Below the pieces are notes generated by a model. That model was not told the origin of the DNA, did not search any database, and saw only the letters and a program-made list of their open reading frames with translations. A stretch of 64,000 nucleotides of DNA from an uncultured Bacteroidia bacterium (lineage in GTDB: Bacteria > Bacteroidota > Bacteroidia > JANWVE01), in contig CALIZB010000003.1 of assembly GCA_938028625.1 (NCBI GenBank), positions 12,103 through 76,102 on the forward strand. The letters are read 5' to 3'. Each line of letters begins with the position of its first letter. Position 1 is the first letter of the stretch. Shown piece by piece: positions 15,376 to 29,324 of this stretch. The position numbers and the translations under genes are program-made.

Positions 15376-16191
15376 ATGGAGATTTTAGGATACATAATCG
15401 CATTATTTATAGGAGTTTCGCTTGGCTTGACGGGGAGTGGTGGTAGTATTTTAATGTTACCTGTATTAGTCTATCTTTTTGGCGTAGAAATACTTCAAGC
15501 TACTACTTATTCTTTGTTTGTGGTAGGTATTACCAGCATTACAGGGTTAGCAAAGTATATCAAAGAAAAATCTATTCATAGTGCATCAATTATTGCATTT
15601 GGCATACCTTCTTTATTGTTAATAACCATTACACGCAGATACATCACGCCTGAAATACCTGAAAATATATATCTCTCAGACAGCATAATTATCAGCAGAC
15701 ATATTCTGCTGATGACTTTATTTTCATTACTGATGATAATAGCTTCATTAAAGTTTATTCGTAAAAAAGAAAACGATAAGATTGAGGAAAATACTTGCAC
15801 ACGCGCACAAAATTATTTTTTGAAGTTAAGTATAGCAGGAATAGTAGTTGGATTTTTAACAGGGCTTCTAGGTATAGGTGGAGGGTTTTTAATTATTCCT
15901 GCATTAGTTACCTTTGTGCATTTAGATATGAAAAAAGCCATAGGAACTTCTTTATTCTTAATTACTATCAATTCTATAATAGGCTTTTTAAGCGAAAAAC
16001 ATTTTCAGAATATGGACTGGAGGTTATTAGTCAGCATAACGCTTATTTCTATAATAGGAATGATAATAGGAAGTAGTTTGGTCAAAAAAGTAAATACCAA
16101 GCAGTTAAAACTAATTTTTGGTTGGTTTATTTTGAGCATGGGAGTATTTATCATATTCAAAGAAATTATTGTATATTCGTACCATAAATAA
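15376..16191 (+). CDS. TauE/SafE (DUF81) family sulfite/anion exporter membrane protein.
   Basis: The 271-aa polytopic membrane protein has two internal repeats with Gly-rich TM helices (GSGGSILMLP, GIGGGFLIIPAL). Confidence 0.7.
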   Translation: MEILGYIIALFIGVSLGLTGSGGSILMLPVLVYLFGVEILQATTYSLFVVGITSITGLAKYIKEKSIHSASIIAFGIPSLLLITITRRYITPEIPENIYLSDSIIISRHILLMTLFSLLMIIASLKFIRKKENDKIEENTCTRAQNYFLKLSIAGIVVGFLTGLLGIGGGFLIIPALVTFVHLDMKKAIGTSLFLITINSIIGFLSEKHFQNMDWRLLVSITLISIIGMIIGSSLVKKVNTKQLKLIFGWFILSMGVFIIFKEIIVYSYHK

Positions 16192-16200
16192 ACATAGATT

Positions 16201-17613
16201 ATGAACATAGAACAAATATATACGGGCTGTTTAGCTCAAGGCGCTTACTACATCACCTCTGATGGGGAAGCCGCTATCATTGACCCTTTACGGGAAATCA
16301 AGCCTTATTTGGATAGAATTGCCAAAGATGGAGTAAAGTTAAAATACATCTTTGAAACCCACTTTCATGCAGATTTCGTATCAGGACACTTGGATTTGAA
16401 TAAAGCCACAGGTGCGCCCATCGTATACGGACCTACGGCTAAACCCGAATTTGATGCCATTATCGCGACCGATGGACAAGAGTTTAGGATAGGTAAAATT
16501 ACCATAGTAGTTTTACACACGCCAGGGCATACCTTAGAAAGTTCTACTTATCTGCTTAAAGATGAAAATGGCAAACCACATTGTATTTTCTCAGGAGATA
16601 CCTTATTTCTTGGTGATGTCGGTAGGCCTGACCTTGCGCAAAAAGCCGCACACATGACACAAGAAGAACTTGCAGGCTTGCTGTATGATAGCTTGATGAA
16701 CAAAATTATGCCTTTACCTGATGAGATTATTGTTTATCCTGCACACGGCGCAGGTAGCGCGTGCGGCAAAAACATGATGAAAGAAACCGTGGATACTCTA
16801 GGCAATCAAAAAAAGGTAAATTATGCGCTCAAACAACCCAATAAAGAAGCTTTTATTAAAGCTGTTTTAGATGGTTTGCTTCCACCGCCCAAGTACTTTG
16901 GTATGAACGTAGCTATGAATAAACAAGGTTATCAAAATTTTGATACGGTTCTCAAAAAAGGACTTAACCCTATTGACCCAAAAAATTTTGAAAGCATAGT
17001 AGAAGCCACGAATGCACTTATCTTGGATACCCGCCCTGCATCAGAATTTTATCAAGGTTTTATACCTAATAGCATCAATATCGGCTTGAAAGGAGATTTT
17101 GCCCCCTGGGTAGGTGCTATGATTATAGATGTCCAACAACCTATTGCATTAGTTTGTGTACCAGGTACAGAAGAAGAAGCTATTACAAGATTAAGTCGTG
17201 TAGGTTTTGATAATGTAATAGGTTACCTTGATGGTGGTTTTGAAGCATGGAAAAACGCAGGATTAGAAATAGATACCGTTAATAGAATTACCGCCACACA
17301 GTTTGAACAGCAAGTAAATATAAACAAAGACCTTATTATTGATGTGCGCAAACCGTCTGAATACGAAGCAGAACACGTAGAAAATGCAGAAAATAAATCT
17401 CTGGATTTTATAAACGAATGGATAAAAGACCTTAACCCCGATACACATTTTTATATTCACTGTGCAGGCGGATACCGCAGTATGATAGCCGCAAGCATCT
17501 TGCAATCTCGGGGATACAGAAATTTTACTGAAATAGAAGGTGGTTTTAATGCTATAAAAAACACAAAAATTCCTGTAACTAACTTTGTCTGTCAAAGTAA
17601 AAACAAAGTATAA
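16201..17613 (+). CDS. MBL-fold persulfide dioxygenase-like hydrolase fused to rhodanese (sulfurtransferase) domains.
   Basis: The metallo-beta-lactamase motif is HFHADFVSGH, and the C-terminal rhodanese has active-site CAGGYRS. It sits 10 bp after the tauE-like gene, forming a sulfur-handling operon. Confidence 0.8.
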   Translation: MNIEQIYTGCLAQGAYYITSDGEAAIIDPLREIKPYLDRIAKDGVKLKYIFETHFHADFVSGHLDLNKATGAPIVYGPTAKPEFDAIIATDGQEFRIGKITIVVLHTPGHTLESSTYLLKDENGKPHCIFSGDTLFLGDVGRPDLAQKAAHMTQEELAGLLYDSLMNKIMPLPDEIIVYPAHGAGSACGKNMMKETVDTLGNQKKVNYALKQPNKEAFIKAVLDGLLPPPKYFGMNVAMNKQGYQNFDTVLKKGLNPIDPKNFESIVEATNALILDTRPASEFYQGFIPNSINIGLKGDFAPWVGAMIIDVQQPIALVCVPGTEEEAITRLSRVGFDNVIGYLDGGFEAWKNAGLEIDTVNRITATQFEQQVNINKDLIIDVRKPSEYEAEHVENAENKSLDFINEWIKDLNPDTHFYIHCAGGYRSMIAASILQSRGYRNFTEIEGGFNAIKNTKIPVTNFVCQSKNKV

Positions 17614-17618
17614 TGCTC

Positions 17619-17684
17619 AAACCTATAAGGTTTTGTAAAATTAAACAAGTAATTTTGAACTATAAGACCTTATAGGTTTTTAAT
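17619..17684. terminator. Long inverted repeat / bidirectional terminator-like hairpin at the left edge of the ATPase-DUF4276-IS1 insertion.
   Basis: aacctataaggtt at about 17622 and its inverted partner accttataggtt at about 17669 are followed by ttttt. They give a roughly 12-13 bp stem with a roughly 34-nt AT-rich loop. Confidence 0.45.
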
Positions 17685-17718
17685 TTTATGCTAAATTTGC
17701 TTTAAAGACCTTTTATGT

Positions 17719-18831
17719 ATGCCCATAGATAGAATATCCGTATACAATTTTAAGTCTATTCAAGAGCTTGAAAATTTTAGCATTAAACCTATAAATATAC
17801 TCATAGGGGCTAATGGTGCAGGAAAAACAAATTTTATTGAGTTTTTCAAGCTATTACACCACATATATCAAAAACGATTACAATTTTACACTGCTCAGAA
17901 TGGTTATGCAGATAGAATATTATTCATGGGTAGAAAAAAATCTTCATTTTTAGGTGGAGAGATTATTTTTAGACCTGATGCAAAAAGCAATACATCTAAC
18001 ACTTATAAATTCAAAATTGTACCACAGACACATGCAGATAACTTTTATTTCGAGGAAGATTTGGCAGGATATAACATATATGCTATGGGATATAATGAGT
18101 CTTGGGACTATAAAAACGCAGGTGGAGAAGGTAAGTTAGAAAGTGAAATAATACATAACTATGAACTTACACGCATGGATTTTTTGCGAAACTACTTCAA
18201 TACATTCAGAATTTTTCATTTTCATGATACTACCCCTAATTCCCCCCTAAAACAACCTTGTAACATAGAAGATAACGAATATCTCAAAGAAAATGGAAGT
18301 AATCTTTCGGCTTTTTTATATTCTATCAGGCATACTTCTGAGTTTAATATGATACAGTACACCATTCAAAGTATAGCACCATTTTTTGAACGCTTTGAAC
18401 TATACCCCAGTGCCAAAAATGAAAATATGATTTCACTCAATTGGGTACACAAAAATGCTGAAAATTATTTCAATGTACATAGTCTCTCTGATGGCACATT
18501 AAGGTTTATTGCCTTGACTACGTTGCTTTTACAGCCTAATCCACCTAAAACTATCATTATTGATGAACCTGAATTAGGTTTACATCCTACTGCTATTTAC
18601 AAATTAGGAGAAATGATAAAAATGGCATCTACAAAATCTCAGGTTATCGTTTCTACACAATCACCGTATTTGGTAGATATATTTGAACCCGAAGATATTA
18701 TTGTAGTAGAGAGAGAAAATAACCAAAGTATATTTAATCGTTTATCTCGTTTGGAATTGGCAGAATGGTTAGAAAAATACACTATTAGTGAACTTTGGGA
18801 TAAAAACATTATAGGAGGACTTCCCCGATGA
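17719..18831 (+). CDS. AAA_21-type ABC ATPase (an OLD/PARIS AriA-like ATPase component).
   Basis: Walker A is GANGAGKTN, the signature-like motif is LSDGTLRFIAL, and Walker B with D-loop is IIIDEPELGLHP. A Q-for-H H-loop is VIVSTQSP. The stop overlaps the downstream ATG (ATGA), indicating translational coupling. Confidence 0.8.
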   Translation: MPIDRISVYNFKSIQELENFSIKPINILIGANGAGKTNFIEFFKLLHHIYQKRLQFYTAQNGYADRILFMGRKKSSFLGGEIIFRPDAKSNTSNTYKFKIVPQTHADNFYFEEDLAGYNIYAMGYNESWDYKNAGGEGKLESEIIHNYELTRMDFLRNYFNTFRIFHFHDTTPNSPLKQPCNIEDNEYLKENGSNLSAFLYSIRHTSEFNMIQYTIQSIAPFFERFELYPSAKNENMISLNWVHKNAENYFNVHSLSDGTLRFIALTTLLLQPNPPKTIIIDEPELGLHPTAIYKLGEMIKMASTKSQVIVSTQSPYLVDIFEPEDIIVVERENNQSIFNRLSRLELAEWLEKYTISELWDKNIIGGLPR

Positions 18832-19432
18832 ACCCTATTTATGTACTTTGTGAAGGAAAAACAGAGCAAAATTTTGTCAATCAAATTTTGGGAGAGTATT
18901 TGTATAATAAATACCAAATAGAACGTATCTATGGTATTATGGCAAATACAAGCAAAAACGCAAAGGGCGGTAGTTTATCTTATTCTAGGTATAAAAATGA
19001 AGTTCAGGATTTGTTAAAAAGAGAGGAAAATGCCATAATAACTTCTCTGATAGATTATTACAAATTACAGACGGATTTTCCTGATTATACTGCCATACAA
19101 AGCACAAATATTCAGGATAAAGCAGAGAAAGTTTCGCAATTAGAGCAGTCCATAGCAAGAGATATTAAGCATAAACGCTTTTTACCTTATATTCAGTTAC
19201 ATGAATTTGAGGCTTTATTATTCTCTTCTATAAATGGTTTTGATAACCTTGTTGGCTTAGATTTAAAGAAGAAAAAACAGATAGAGAAAATAATAACTTC
19301 ATATCATAATCCTGAATATATCAATGACGGTCAGGATACACACCCGTCAGCAAGGTTAAGCTAACTTATTCAAGGATATAGAAAACTGCTATTTGCAGAG
19401 CAAATTATTAAGCAAAGTGGTATGGATAGTAT

Positions 19433-20181
19433 GGTATTGCTAATTTAGTATAGTTTTTTTTATTTTGCAACTTTATTACTCTAATTCATTTGACTATGAA
19501 GACATGCCCAAAATGTAAATCTATTAATTTCTGTAAAGATGGTATAGTAAAACAAAAACAGCGTTTTAAATGCAAAGATTGTAATTTTCGCTTCACCGTG
19601 CAAGAAGTAGGAAAACCTGCTATCCTTAAAAGAAACGCCTTAACTTTATATCTTGAAGGTTTAGGGTTTCGCTCTATTGGGAGACTTTTGGGTGTCAGTA
19701 ATGTAACAGTTATGAACTGGATAAAATCTTTTGGAGAAAAAATTGATGAATTAAGAAATAATTCAGATATTGAAATTGTGGAGATTGATGAATTGCATAC
19801 CTTTATCGGTTCAAAAAAAAGTATCAATGGATTTGGATTGCTGTTGATAGAAATGGGCATCAATTCATCACTTGTGAAATTGGCAGTAGAGGAACAGAGA
19901 CAGGGGAAAAACTTTGGAAAAGAATTGAAAGTAAAATAAAAGATAAAGTATGTACTGATTATTGGAACGCATATGAAAAATTTGTTCCAAAAGAAAAGCA
20001 CGTACAAAGTAAAAAAGAAACATTTACAGTAGAAGGATATAACAGTCTCTTTCGGCATTTTTTAGCGCGTTTAAGGAGAAAAACAAAATGTTATTCAAAA
20101 TCACTAACAATGCTTCTACATTCTGTAAAATTATTAATGTTCAAATGGAATAACGATTTATCTATACTTTTTTAGCAATAC
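19433..20181 (+). mobile_element. IS1-family insertion sequence (749 bp) with 21-bp imperfect terminal inverted repeats and an 8-bp target-site duplication (gatagtat).
   Basis: IRL is ggtattgctaatttagtatag (19433..19453). IRR is ctatacttttttagcaatacc (20161..20181). The direct repeat gatagtat flanks both ends (19425..19432 and 20182..20189). Inside is an InsA-like zinc-finger/HTH ORF and an InsB-like DDE ORF in the -1 frame. Confidence 0.85.
19490..20172 (+). CDS. insAB: IS1 transposase InsAB', produced by a programmed -1 frameshift at the A8 run 19813..19820. InsA alone is 19490..19939.
   Basis: InsA has the zinc-finger CPKCKS...CKDC and an HTH. The -1 frame reads KKKYQWIWIAVDRNGHQFITCEIGSRGTETGEKLW...HVQSKKETFTVEGYNSLFRHFLARLRRKTKCYSKSLTMLLHSVKLLMFKWNN. 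This aligns with E. coli IS1 InsB (QRWLFYAYD...[39 protein letters not shown]). Confidence 0.8.
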
Positions 20182-20301
20182 CGATAGTATTTTACAGCGT
20201 TGCTGTCGTTTTAGAGAGTGGGTAAAAAAGTTAGTAGAGTATTCTAATAAGAAATTTTGATTGCATTGTGCTAATTTTACCTTGTTTTATCTATCTTAAA
20301 A

Positions 20302-23300
20302 TTACAGTCTATTCGCTAATACGCACACTAACTTATATTTTTTATGCTTGCCATTCTGACCATCACTGGTTTCTACCCAAACAATGTAAATGCCCATTCT
20401 GCATTTTTCGTTTTCTTCATTAGTACCGTCCCAGGTAAAAAAACTCGGTTCTGTGCCAACCAGTTCATTTTCTTTGAGTTTGCGTACTAATCTGCCTTGT
20501 GCATCAAAAATGTAAATGCGTAAAGTAGTAGGTTGATTAAAATTGTAATGTATTTGTAAAAAATCATCTCTGCCATCATTATCGGGGGAGAATACTTTGG
20601 GCGATAAAGAAACGCCTTCATTTTCATTAACTAACACTCTTTGGCTATTTTCATACCCAGGTGTACCAAATCCTGCGGTAGAAGCGGCACTATGCCAATT
20701 ATCTTTACTGTTTGTACGTTGTGAAAAACTTAATCTTTCCAAAGCCACCCCATCTTGGCTGACTAACGTAGGTACATGCCAATCCTTGTAATAGCGTAAA
20801 GTATCTATCCATAGCCCTTGATTGCTTATGATAGCACACCCCCCTTTGCTGTCATCATAAGTAGGAAAAGAACTCATTTTGAATAAAGCATTAGGATTTT
20901 TTACCTTGTATCTTGCTTTGATAAAAGCAATATCAGCACTCATACAAAAATATTGCTGTGGTAAAAGAATACGGCTTTGGTTAGTAATCGTTTTTATATT
21001 ATAGATACTATCTTTATCCATGTCTAATTCTGCAATTTTCCAATTTTTAAGGTCTATGGCTTTATCTGAATTATTGTAAATCTCTACATAATCCGAACCA
21101 TTAGTATAAGGATTAAATAAAATTTCATTGATGATAATATCCCCTGGATGCGCGGTGCGCGGAATAAGTATGGTTAGAGTATCTTTTACGATATTCCCAC
21201 TACAATCTCTTGCACCATTTATAATGAGTTGATAGGCTTGCATACTATCTAATGAGGTAGCTAAATTCAATGTCATTTTTTGTAAATCAGGCGAAGAGAG
21301 TGCTATACTTTGTGGATTTCCAATACCGTTGTTAATGCTATAAAATGCAGTATTTACAGATAAAGCACTGTCTAATGGTTCATTAAATTGAATTTCTAAT
21401 ATAGTTGGACTAATAACTCCAAAAAATGTAATTTTAGGAATTTGTGTATCTGGACTATTAGCGGCTACACTGTTTATTTTACCCGGTGTTCCCCCTGTGA
21501 GTGAATTGCTAGCTCGCCAGTTATCACCACTGCGGCAGGGTGTATTCTCGTCTATCATTTCTAAACTGTATCCGCCATTTTTTTTAACATCATCTTTGTA
21601 CCAATCCAAAGTAAAATTAAGTTTATGAACAATAGCATTTTTTTCGTTCTTTAAAACTAGTACTTCACCATCATTGCTAATGCTCGGAAAACTACTTACA
21701 CCAAGTACTTGTCCATAAGTACTAAATAAAGGCGCATTAGTAGTAGAAGTGAGAATTAAAAAGGAATCAGGTCTAAGCGTGTAATTAGGTAAAGTAGCTG
21801 TATTGTTATCGTTGCTTATTTTCCAACCTGATAGATTAAACGTTTTAGTAGAACGATTTTTGATTTCTATGTATTCCGCATTAGGAAGTCCTACTACGGG
21901 CGTAGGGTCTGCCATGAATTCTGAAATAATTACATCATACAATTGTGCTACACGCGGAAATTCAAAAGTTAAAACTTGATTAGTGAGGTTATTAGAACAG
22001 TCTTTTACATTATTAACAGTAAGTTGATACGTTTTAGTAGTATCAAAAGTAGCTGTAAAAGTAAGTGTAACCGTAGTAAAATTGGCATCTATGTTTATAC
22101 TATTAGGGTTGCCTATTCCAAAATTGACAACATAATTTGAAGGATTAACCGCAGATAGGCTATCTAAAGGTTCATTAAATAAGAGTTCTAATTTGTTTAG
22201 GGTAGTAGGTGTAAGTTGTATTACGTTAGGTGCAGTATTATCGGGGTTAGATGCGTTAACGCTATTAAGTTGTCCAGGTGTGCCGCCTTGCGCGTGTGTA
22301 GAAGCTATCCAATTAGCAAAACCTACACAAGGAAAGTTTGTATCTATCATTTCTAAACTATACCCGCCGTTTTTCTTAACATCATTTTTGTACCAAGTAT
22401 TACTATAAGTCAATTTATGAATAATGTTTCCGTTATTATCTCGCAAGGTTAAAGTTTCTCCTGAATTATTCAGACTTGGGAAGGAAGTTACTCCTAACGT
22501 ACTTCCAAAAGTAGAAAACGTGGCTACATTAGTAGTACTGCATAAAATTAAGCGTTGTCCTGGATTAAGCGTATAACTTGCCAGAGTAGCCGTAGACGTA
22601 TTATCAGATAACTTCCAACCTATTAGGTTAAGTGTTTTTGTAGAACGATTAAATATTTCTAAATATTCAGCATTAGGAAGTCCTACGGGAGGGTCTGGGT
22701 CTGCCATGATTTCTGTAAAAATAACATCATAGAGTTCAGGTACAACATACATAAATGTAGCAGTATTGCTTGTACCAATAGTATTTCCTGCTAAATCTTG
22801 GATATTAAAACAGGTTACGGTATAATTGATGTTAGCAGTAAGCGGAGTAGACAAGGTTAAATGTACTAATTTAGGATTTCCAATGTCTAAATTAGCAGTA
22901 GCAGGTGTGCCTATGCCCCCACTGATAGAATAATTTGTGGGTACATTTGTAGTGCTAGTTTTAAGGTTCTCATTAAATAACAAATCTATTTCTGTGGGGC
23001 TTATAACTGTGGCAGAGAGTAATTCGGGGGGTGTAGTATCTACTACGATGGGTCCTACATATACATCATCAAGGTAAAATTTAGTAGCGTTACTTATAGT
23101 ATATTGACAGTACCAACCCACATAGCTTGTTGAAGTATGGGTATTATCTAATACTGTACCTTGCGAAACAAAAAATGCACCTGTACCTGTGGTATCAGCG
23201 AGGAGTTCCCAATTACCGATATTATCACGAGTTACTTTGAGTTTAACAAGGTTATTTGTTTTAGCTACCGTACCAGGTATACCTGCAATGATACGTGTAC

Positions 23301-23727
23301 GCGTAGTACCTGTTTGTTTATAGAGAGAAATAGTATCCGTACTTCCTGTACTACCCCCTAACTGTACATAATATCCGTTTAATGGCGTTTTAAGGTCTGC
23401 TTGGTCAGAAACAAGGTAAAAACGGCAAAAATTAGATGTGCTGGGTGAAAATGCAAAGCGTATCCAGACATTCCATTCGGTATTATTTATAGCCGTGTTT
23501 GCAGTAGCCAATGAGGAGGAACCTGCCACAGTAGCATTACTTTGTAATTGAAAACTTGTATTAACTTGAAAATTAGCTACATCACCTACCCATGCAGGCG
23601 AGGAGGTAAAGTTCCCATCACTAAAATCATCATATACTTGCGCGTAAATTGAATTTGAATAGAAAAAAAGTAGCAAGAAGACTATACAAATATCTTTCAT
23701 GCTACGAATATATATTTTTTTTGACAA
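20302..23727 (-). CDS. Large secreted protein (1141 aa) with repeated lamin-tail (LTD) domains and a T9SS type-B (gliding-motility CHU_C-like) C-terminal sorting domain.
   Basis: It has a signal peptide, two near-identical LTD modules (LYDVIFTEIMADPDPPVGLPNAEYLEIFNRS... and LYDVIISEFMADPTPVVGLPNAEYIEIKNRS...) and a third degenerate one. The C-terminus is FSPDNDGRDDFLQIHYNF... Confidence 0.7.
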   Translation of the reverse strand: MSKKIYIRSMKDICIVFLLLFFYSNSIYAQVYDDFSDGNFTSSPAWVGDVANFQVNTSFQLQSNATVAGSSSLATANTAINNTEWNVWIRFAFSPSTSNFCRFYLVSDQADLKTPLNGYYVQLGGSTGSTDTISLYKQTGTTRTRIIAGIPGTVAKTNNLVKLKVTRDNIGNWELLADTTGTGAFFVSQGTVLDNTHTSTSYVGWYCQYTISNATKFYLDDVYVGPIVVDTTPPELLSATVISPTEIDLLFNENLKTSTTNVPTNYSISGGIGTPATANLDIGNPKLVHLTLSTPLTANINYTVTCFNIQDLAGNTIGTSNTATFMYVVPELYDVIFTEIMADPDPPVGLPNAEYLEIFNRSTKTLNLIGWKLSDNTSTATLASYTLNPGQRLILCSTTNVATFSTFGSTLGVTSFPSLNNSGETLTLRDNNGNIIHKLTYSNTWYKNDVKKNGGYSLEMIDTNFPCVGFANWIASTHAQGGTPGQLNSVNASNPDNTAPNVIQLTPTTLNKLELLFNEPLDSLSAVNPSNYVVNFGIGNPNSINIDANFTTVTLTFTATFDTTKTYQLTVNNVKDCSNNLTNQVLTFEFPRVAQLYDVIISEFMADPTPVVGLPNAEYIEIKNRSTKTFNLSGWKISNDNNTATLPNYTLRPDSFLILTSTTNAPLFSTYGQVLGVSSFPSISNDGEVLVLKNEKNAIVHKLNFTLDWYKDDVKKNGGYSLEMIDENTPCRSGDNWRASNSLTGGTPGKINSVAANSPDTQIPKITFFGVISPTILEIQFNEPLDSALSVNTAFYSINNGIGNPQSIALSSPDLQKMTLNLATSLDSMQAYQLIINGARDCSGNIVKDTLTILIPRTAHPGDIIINEILFNPYTNGSDYVEIYNNSDKAIDLKNWKIAELDMDKDSIYNIKTITNQSRILLPQQYFCMSADIAFIKARYKVKNPNALFKMSSFPTYDDSKGGCAIISNQGLWIDTLRYYKDWHVPTLVSQDGVALERLSFSQRTNSKDNWHSAASTAGFGTPGYENSQRVLVNENEGVSLSPKVFSPDNDGRDDFLQIHYNFNQPTTLRIYIFDAQGRLVRKLKENELVGTEPSFFTWDGTNEENEKCRMGIYIVWVETSDGQNGKHKKYKLVCVLANRL

Positions 23728-29011: not shown

Positions 29012-29057
29012 CAAGTGTGCTGGCTTATTTTTTGAAAAACTGAATAAAATAAAATTG

Positions 29058-29130
29058 AGCGGAAGACGGGATTCGAACCCGCGACATTCACCTTGGCAAG
29101 GTGATGCTCTACCAACTGAGCTACTTCCGC
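29058..29130 (-). tRNA. tRNA-Gly (GCC).
   Basis: The reverse complement is GCGGAAGTAGCTCAGTTGGTAGAGCATCACCTTGCCAAGGTGAATGTCGCGGGTTCGAATCCCGTCTTCCGC plus discriminator T. It gives a cloverleaf with anticodon loop TTGCCAA. No CCA is encoded. Confidence 0.9.
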
Positions 29131-29137
29131 AAGAGTG

Positions 29138-29223
29138 TGCCGCAGGCGGGAATCGAACCCGCACCCGTATTACTACAGACAGGATTTTAAGTCCTGCGCG
29201 TCTACCTGTTCCGCCACCACGGC
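29138..29223 (-). tRNA. tRNA-Leu (TAA), type II with a long variable arm.
   Basis: The reverse complement is GCCGTGGTGGCGGAACAGGTAGACGCGCAGGACTTAAAATCCTGTCTGTAGTAATACGGGTGCGGGTTCGATTCCCGCCTGCGGCA. The anticodon loop is CTTAAAA. Confidence 0.85.
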
Positions 29224-29251
29224 AAATACTCTTAATTCTCAAAGAACTTTG

Positions 29252-29324
29252 AGCAGAAGACGGGATTCGAACCCGCGACATTCACCTTGGCAAGGTGATG
29301 CTCTACCAACTGAGCTACTTCTGC
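29252..29324 (-). tRNA. tRNA-Gly (GCC), a second copy that differs from the first in the acceptor stem (GCAGAAG versus GCGGAAG).
   Basis: The body is identical to the first tRNA-Gly, and the acceptor base change is compensated on both strands of the stem. Confidence 0.9.

Follow-up and report, generated by a model that had tools for sequence, protein, structure and literature searches.

The locus examined here, at positions 19433..20182 of a 64-kb stretch of Bacteroidota DNA (64,000 nucleotides, hereafter the window), raises the question of whether an insertion sequence (IS) whose transposase gene is split between two reading frames at a run of eight adenines (A8) is a functional element expressed through recoding or a broken one, and of what its insertion meant for the candidate defense gene beside it. 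The reading that we favor overall, and regard as very probable, is that of a complete IS1-family element, recoded on the A8 tract and located inside a HEC-01B gene.

Boundaries, coding content, and family of the element

The element occupies 750 bp on the forward strand (19433..20182), its boundaries coinciding with the limits of homology to a second copy (L064) and with the end of a contig in a third assembly (L065), and its G+C content is 30.1% compared with 34.7% for the window. The left inverted repeat (IRL, forward strand, 19433..19453; 21 bp, GGTATTGCTAATTTAGTATAG) starts with GGnnnTG, and its exact 21-mer is also terminal in relatives; the right one (IRR, forward strand, 20162..20182; 21 bp, CTATACTTTTTTAGCAATACC) holds the transposase stop codon TAG (20173-20175). 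The first-pass annotation had described these repeats as complementary save for a central TTT/AAA block, and this description proved accurate, with 18/21 positions complementary and the three mismatches confined to that block. The same TTT/AAA asymmetry was observed in the inverted repeats of an 18-copy sister element. The end of the element, previously placed at 20181, had to be corrected: the last base of IRR is 20182, and the element therefore measures 750 bp and ends at that position.

The 8-bp target-site duplication (TSD) proposed earlier for both ends was recovered as an exact repeat, GATAGTAT, at 19425..19432 and 20183..20190, and it is exactly 8 bp long, as the ninth base is mismatched on either side. 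An 18/21 inverted repeat taken alone is unremarkable in a 64-kb AT-rich window: with a spacing of 600-1500 bp, one was observed in the window and zero to one in each of three shuffles. The exact flanking 8-bp repeat has a chance probability of P ~3e-5, and the termini coincide exactly with the L064 homology boundaries and with the contig break in L065, so that the repeat pattern is not the coincidence that the first-pass annotation had allowed for. The terminal 21-mer is, moreover, kept in relatives that are only ~69% identical overall.

According to ISfinder, IS1-family elements are about 740-1180 bp long and have terminal inverted repeats beginning with GGnnnTG. The element described here, with its 750 bp, its 18/21 inverted repeats, and its GGTATTG ends (GGTGATG in Escherichia coli IS1A), agrees with these features, and its exact 8-bp GATAGTAT duplication falls within the 8-9 bp typical of the family. 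A scan of the element for sigma-70-type promoters and terminators, which is ill-suited to Bacteroidota promoters, returned nothing above shuffle expectation. We also observed a T8 run directly after IRL (19450-19461) that is complementary at 11/12 positions to the A8 site and its flank (19813-19824; ATAGTTTTTTTT and AAAAAAAAGTAT, respectively). Because the T8 run is absent from the sister elements examined, this complementarity is probably due to chance.

Two overlapping frames account for the coding content. The frame-0 open reading frame (forward strand, 19496..19939; ATG at 19496, TAA at 19937-19939) encodes a 147-aa presumed InsA-like regulator, identical to the database protein P0080, which comprises a four-Cys zinc finger, a helix–turn–helix (HTH), the motif of the first catalytic Asp (EIDE), and a tail of 39 aa read out of frame. 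The -1 frame lacks its own start codon and stays open between 19792 and the TAG within IRR (20173-20175). Profile matches and alignment assign to its stretch at 19819..20175 (forward strand) residues 109-226 of the transposase plus the stop, including D155 and E180 of the DDE triad. The re-reading of a single A, that is, a -1 shift, joins both parts into a 226-aa fused protein. The positions given in the first-pass annotation for the A8 tract (19813-19820) and for the end of the frame-0 frame (19939) were both right.

The fused protein matched the NF033558 transpos_IS1 model with 211.8 bits (cut-off 100) along residues 4-196 and model positions 1-199/199, thus spanning the junction, and PF03400 (DDE_Tnp_IS1) with 68.1 bits (cut-off 24.1), in accordance with the complete IS1-family element originally proposed. 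NF050000 (IS1_IS1595_Zn) scored 30.9 bits (cut-off 28), and HTH_23 gave a borderline match to the frame-0 protein (24.9 bits, cut-off 24.6). The order expected for IS1, an N-terminal four-Cys zinc finger followed by an HTH, was observed, and in a nine-sequence alignment including E. coli IS1A InsAB' the residues C4, C7, C26, C29, D98, D155, E180, and R187 were invariant. From their positions in this alignment, D98, D155, and E180 presumably constitute the catalytic DDE triad, with R187 located seven residues after the Glu. Affiliations to other families were considered and discarded, since the scores of IS1595 (NF033547, 37.2 bits, cut-off 75), IS6 (NF033587, 45.4 bits, cut-off 125), and ISL3 were all far under the respective cut-offs. 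On sequence grounds, membership in the IS1 family, and within it in the ISCaa4/ISMac16-like clade with a 226-aa transposase, was confirmed. The closest database protein of any kind (P0001) is 75% identical. Under ISfinder naming practice, a best match at this level would earn a new IS name, so the element deserves a new name and does not represent a new kind of element.

The interrupted HEC-01B gene and other copies of the element

With ~71% identity to Cytophagales proteins, among them that of Flexibacter flexilis, and 97% identity to a JGI protein, the GyrB encoded in the window indicates that the host is an uncultured Cytophagales-like member of the Bacteroidota. Downstream of the IS, in convergent orientation, lies an intact gene (20302-23727) whose domain matches (LTD/Big_5/CHU_C) are those of a type IX secretion substrate, and for which an exact-sequence look-up returned no match. 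A tRNA cluster, Gly(GCC)-Leu(TAA)-Gly(GCC), was also detected on the minus strand at 29057-29324 of the window.

The genes upstream of the element form a pair that corresponds to HEC-01, a candidate defense system in PADLOC. The first is an intact HEC-01A ATPase gene (AAA_15/AAA_21; forward strand, 17719..18831), the partner of HEC-01B, whose product matched PDLC04175 with 436.8 bits along profile positions 5-362/363. The second is a truncated DUF4276/HEC-01B reading frame of 178 aa (forward strand, 18828..19364), closed by a premature in-frame TAA at 19362-19364. The system is recognized by adjacent HEC-01A and HEC-01B genes that are both full length, and HEC-01B reaches full length here only after in-silico repair.

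The location of this stop 68 nt upstream of the IS, together with the end-to-end match of the 178-aa frame to a 168-position PADLOC profile, could suggest that the IS landed in an intergenic spacer and hit no gene, and this interpretation was ruled out by in-silico excision of the IS. When position 19432 was joined to 20191, thereby removing the IS and one TSD copy, the same frame continued past the TAA as LIQGYRKLLFAEQIIKQSGMDSI up to the insertion point and as LQRCCRFREWVKKLVEYSNKKF from there to the stop, restoring the C-terminal 45 codons and a repaired protein of 224 aa. The restored part, delimited by excision and alignment, consists of a remnant with codons 180-202, in frame between the TAA and the IS (forward strand, 19365..19432), and of a 3' remnant with codons 202-224 and a TGA at 20258-20260 (forward strand, 20191..20260). 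Matches to DUF4276 increased from 124 bits in the truncated frame to 159 bits in the repaired protein (positions 1-191/192), and those to the HEC-01B profile PDLC04188 from 194 to 240 bits (positions 12-226/230). The 45-aa tail alone was recognized with E=4e-5 (Pfam) and 1.4e-8 (PADLOC). All 119 other homologues listed are 212-244 aa long, and family-invariant residues are found on both sides of the insertion, namely Y184 and K186 before it and C206, F209, and W212 after it. Excision thus restores a full-length DUF4276/HEC-01B gene, and the IS does interrupt the candidate defense gene. By inserting after codon 202, it removed the conserved C-terminal C-x2-F-x2-W motif from the product.

The gene is accordingly damaged twice, by a nonsense mutation at codon 179 and by the IS that follows codon 202. 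Homologues carry K, N, G, or S at the position of codon 179, so that a single-base change from AAA is a plausible origin of the stop. The remnant contains no further stops or frameshifts, and this otherwise clean state together with the perfect TSD makes both lesions look recent, in line with the earlier interpretation of the intact direct repeat as a sign of recent insertion. It had further been proposed that the insertion helps to date the inactivation of the neighboring defense gene. The disruption of this gene by the IS stands, but the dating does not, since, given the independent TAA 68 nt upstream, the gene need not have been inactivated by the IS, which alone provides no date for that loss. 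For annotation purposes, the 178-aa DUF4276 frame is best marked as a HEC-01B gene that has been disrupted, and the locus offers a clean, recent case in which insertion of a mobile element disabled part of a candidate anti-phage system.

The search for further copies suggested by the first-pass annotation found one copy within the 64-kb window and a second one (L064) from another sample and at another locus, which is 98.9% identical over exactly 19433-20182 and has different flanks. The frame-0 protein is on record from two contigs only. The same element is hence present at more than one genomic site, as expected of a mobile IS1 element. The eight differences between L064 and the window copy comprise three in the 5' leader, three synonymous ones in frame 0, and two synonymous ones in the -1 part. 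All five coding differences are therefore synonymous in the fused reading and the two fused proteins are identical, as would be expected if the fused reading were under purifying selection. No TSD was detected in the flanks of L064. This could reflect a chimera, the contig being short, or recombination of the copy, a process that swapped flanks suggest for the 18 copies of the sister element as well. L065, in the third assembly, matches window positions 15828-19432 with 99.9% identity and breaks off directly at the left edge of IRL, as is typical of a repeat-induced contig break. The unoccupied allele would be diagnosed by GTGGTATGGATAGTATTTTACAGCG, and a search of JGI metagenome contigs for an empty site, using a 29-nt pattern across the reconstructed pre-insertion junction, found no match. 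An exact search with the 21-nt IRL retrieved nine contigs, all of them carrying relatives ~66-69% identical and none the same element. Taken as a whole, the element is very probably transposition-competent and probably still mobile, judging from its sequence and that of its copies.

Beside L064, positions 1-642 of its contig (minus strand) contain a reading frame that remains open up to the IS boundary and matches an N6_N4 DNA methylase profile only from position 137/221 onward, which looks like a 5'-truncated gene. As this frame is an apparent truncated methylase, both known copies sit in defense-type genes, which fits the notion of defense islands as IS sinks, and two cases prove nothing. 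Among related elements, 8-bp flanks recur between copies located on the same contigs of the metagenome-assembled genome (MAG) MFD03726.bin.1.151: the sequence to the right of L007 is found again to the left of L009, and the right flanks of L010 and L019 are reverse complements of each other. These shared flanks suggest IS-mediated inversions or recombination, or else misassembly.

The A8 tract as a putative recoding site

The A8 tract (forward strand, 19813..19820) is read in frame 0 as TCA AAA AAA AGT, which places an A_AAA_AAA heptamer in phase. Its conservation was assessed in 49 related copies, taken from metagenomes and species-representative genomes. Of these, 43/49 require a -1 shift at exactly this tract, and 41 of the 43 present an in-phase A_AAA_AAA or A_AAA_AAG, the other two reading GAT AAA AAA ACT (T_AAA_AAA). 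Four copies are in frame (three with A9 and one with A7), and the remaining two have other offsets. In-frame A9 versions occur in L001 and L042/43, and genuine single-ORF relatives reading IGSKKNYCW exist as well; the clade can thus do without the frameshift. The conserved Lys-Lys pair in the motif G-x-K-K-N-Y-C-W is specified by the tract, through codons that would naturally become a long A-run in AT-rich hosts. The tract length was observed to vary among A7, A8, and A9 in L001, L042, L043, L003, L070, L073, and L074, being either in frame or in need of a -1 shift, and this variation is consistent with heritable toggling by replication slippage.

The most informative relatives are those present in many copies or on finished replicons. 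One MAG contains 18 copies of a sister element (~72% amino acid identity), all 750 bp long and all with A8, of which 13 are flanked by perfect 8-bp AT-rich TSDs at distinct sites; elements with A8 therefore transpose. The same arrangement was found on finished replicons of cultured isolates that belong to two domains of life, namely a plasmid of Methylobacter sp. YRD-M1 (TCT AAA AAA ACT) and pMETHO01 of Methanomethylovorans hollandica (AAC AAA AAA AAT), on each of which RefSeq annotates a single 683-nt "IS1 family transposase" CDS. As 683 nt is not a multiple of three, this CDS denotes a joined, frameshifted product. The retention of the A-tract in multi-copy, TSD-flanked relatives supports the earlier proposal of A8 as a -1 site, and we favor, from these comparisons, a programmed site over a lesion; both the occurrence and the efficiency of recoding are what we infer from them. 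The first-pass annotation had also singled out A8, rather than A6C, as worth noting. The run is real, but in the compared sequences it appears as the norm for this IS1 clade and not as an oddity of one copy, and it is not homologous to A6C. In practical terms, the two reading frames should be annotated jointly as one programmed-frameshift IS1 transposase.

The mechanism that we propose starts with transcription from the left end, which would yield one mRNA. Its ordinary translation would produce the 147-aa zinc-finger/HTH protein, which, by analogy with IS1 InsA, may bind the inverted repeats and restrain transposition as a repressor. A minority of ribosomes would slip by -1 on A_AAA_AAA (tcA AAA AAA Agt), and/or the polymerase would add an A on the A8 run, and either the slip or the extra A would lead to the 226-aa DDE transposase (D98, D155, E180). 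This enzyme is predicted to recognize the 21-bp GGTATTG... termini and to insert the element via an 8-bp staggered cut, with a preference for AT-rich DNA.

A frameshift-stimulating hairpin 3' of A8 was considered and rejected, as neither type of folding supported it. The single-sequence fold of the region downstream was no better than shuffles (z=0.36), and the RNAalifold consensus hairpin of 13 relatives was weak (-5.3 kcal/mol), distant from the tract (~19 nt), and devoid of compensatory pairs. Separately, we computed the third-codon-position entropy from the copy in the window and the homologous positions of 16 distinct related elements, and the first 13 codons after the slip site (19822-19860) showed 0.47-0.53 bits, about half of the 0.8-1.15 bits observed elsewhere; this low synonymous variability could reflect dual-frame coding or an unrecognized stimulatory element. 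In the 227-aa P0068 (ISMba2, Methanosarcina barkeri), the frame-0 reading NISGSGLLLIELG appears briefly before the transposase frame is resumed, which is an artefact of annotation or else the result of two frameshifts that compensate each other.

The rival explanation that survives best is that the fusion arises mainly through transcriptional slippage, with the polymerase inserting an extra A on the A8 run and the ribosomal -1 shift playing a minor part. Slippage on runs of A8-10 has been documented to join orfA to orfB in IS elements, whose homologues carry A8 or A9 variants of one and the same site (PMC1088944), and both the length variation at this site among the relatives compared here (A8, A9, and A7) and the failure of folding to find a conserved downstream stimulatory structure agree with this explanation. 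However, what the relatives conserve is the phase in which the tract is read (NNA AAA AAA) and not a length of at least eight, given that shift-requiring relatives include A7 versions (TCA AAA AAA GCA, with an in-phase A_AAA_AAG, TCT AAA AAA ACT, and GAT AAA AAA ACT) and that the ISCaa4 site reads AAAAAAG (PMC3196728). In addition, E. coli IS1 frameshifts without an established stimulator (PMC4066793). We therefore lean away from a predominantly transcriptional origin while treating it as a serious possibility. The codon phase and the A7/AAAAAAG variants point to ribosomal -1 frameshifting, and ribosomal and transcriptional slippage are not mutually exclusive; both mechanisms may contribute. 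A recoding site located inside the catalytic core and kept from Bacteroidota to Methanosarcinales would offer a convenient natural test system for ribosomal versus transcriptional slippage in Bacteroidota and archaea.

A more elaborate reading, which we consider rather unlikely, holds that the Lys-Lys-Asn/Lys codons directly after the first catalytic Asp were co-opted as a recoding site independently of A6C and serve as a two-level rheostat. Replication slippage would toggle the element between an in-frame A9 state (constitutive transposase) and a -1 A8 state (attenuated), and ribosomal or transcriptional slippage would set a low basal level in the latter. On this view, the 147-aa product, whose out-of-frame tail (GFGLLLIEMG...) is hydrophobic and conserved, would be a selected regulator and not a by-product. 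Such a reading agrees with the reduced synonymous variability of the first 13 codons after the site.

It seems very improbable that an ancestral in-frame A9 lost one base to become the A8 run and that the copy, thereby inactivated, is dead and decaying. The in-frame A9 and single-ORF IGSKKNYCW relatives do provide a conceivable ancestor, and the element is apparently low-copy. However, the same -1 state is found in 43/49 copies, including the 18-copy family with fresh TSDs, neither half of the transposase gene carries any other lesion, and RefSeq treats the arrangement as a translated CDS. The L064 copy has diverged by 8 nt and nevertheless keeps the A8 tract and an identical 226-aa fusion, with 5/5 coding changes synonymous, which renders a dead element unlikely. 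Still less probable is a homopolymer sequencing or assembly error hiding a true A9 element with one uninterrupted frame. Homopolymer length errors are common, and many of the related MAGs (MFD series) may derive from long-read data. However, the independent L064 assembly (Logan SRR12989705) has the same 147-aa frame-0 product, A8, and fused protein, which rules such an error out, and the frame arrangement is shared by assemblies of short reads (UBA7960 and the k99 and k141 contigs) as well as by finished replicons of isolates.

Comparison with known systems

The phenomenon has already been recognized, both in the literature on ISCaa4 (PMC3196728) and in RefSeq annotation. ISCaa4, from the Bacteroidota member 'Candidatus Amoebophilus asiaticus', is an IS1-family element with two ORFs and a predicted -1 frameshift at AAAAAAG that leads to a 226-aa transposase, and its closest relatives are found in the Methanosarcinaceae (Schmitz-Esser et al. 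2011, PMC3196728). The element described here resembles it in its Bacteroidota host, in its overlapping ORFs, predicted to be fused by a -1 shift into a 226-aa DDE transposase, in its A-rich slippery site, and in having its nearest relatives in the same bacterial/archaeal clade, a likeness that refers to the published description of ISCaa4. The two differ in that ISCaa4 combines AAAAAAG with a predicted hairpin 5 nt downstream, whereas the present site consists of an A8 run preceding a G, has A_AAA_AAA as its in-phase heptamer, and lacks a supported hairpin.

The best named matches are ISMac16 (58% identical) and ISMba2 (51%). Together with the transposases of the Methylobacter and Methanomethylovorans plasmids, these Methanosarcina elements encode proteins of 226-227 aa that are 51-61% identical to the one studied here, and they share with it GGCATTG.../GGTATTG... 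termini, an 8-bp TSD (L076), and the codon position of the A-tract, and a -1 shift is needed in some of them too. They differ from it in their identity of at most 61%, and some are genuine single ORFs (NKKYCW) without a long A-run. IS elements with transcriptional slippage on A8-A10 (PMC1088944) are likewise similar in the location of the A-run at the orfA/orfB junction and in the length variants among homologues. IS1-family elements are unmentioned in the text of Baranov et al. (2005, PMC1088944), and compared with the elements treated there, the conserved codon phase of the present site fits ribosomal frameshifting at least as well.

The most distant comparison is that with E. coli IS1A InsAB', to which the fused protein is 26% identical over 219 aa (E=5e-22). 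Both elements (768 bp in IS1A) encode a zinc finger, an HTH, and a DDE domain, have GGnnnTG termini, place the transposase stop inside IRR, and lack a start codon for the second frame, and the -1 slip on a run of A that joins the frames in IS1A is proposed for the present element too. The first-pass annotation had assigned an InsB-like DDE domain to the -1 frame, and its homology to IS1 was upheld in this alignment; its placement entirely in that frame was not, because D98 is already contained in the frame-0 product, and the split therefore lies inside the catalytic domain and not between InsA-like and InsB-like domains. In E. coli, the slip (A6C) follows residue 85, at a point that separates the HTH from the catalytic domain and aligns to residue ~78 of the present protein. 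Here, in contrast, the slip would occur after residue 108, aligned to E. coli residue ~119, which is 3' of the first catalytic Asp and ~30 codons past the A6C position. Judging from this alignment, the two slip sites are not homologous, and the frame-0 product differs accordingly, consisting of 147 aa here, with a piece of the catalytic core and the 39-aa out-of-frame tail, versus 91 aa in E. coli IS1.
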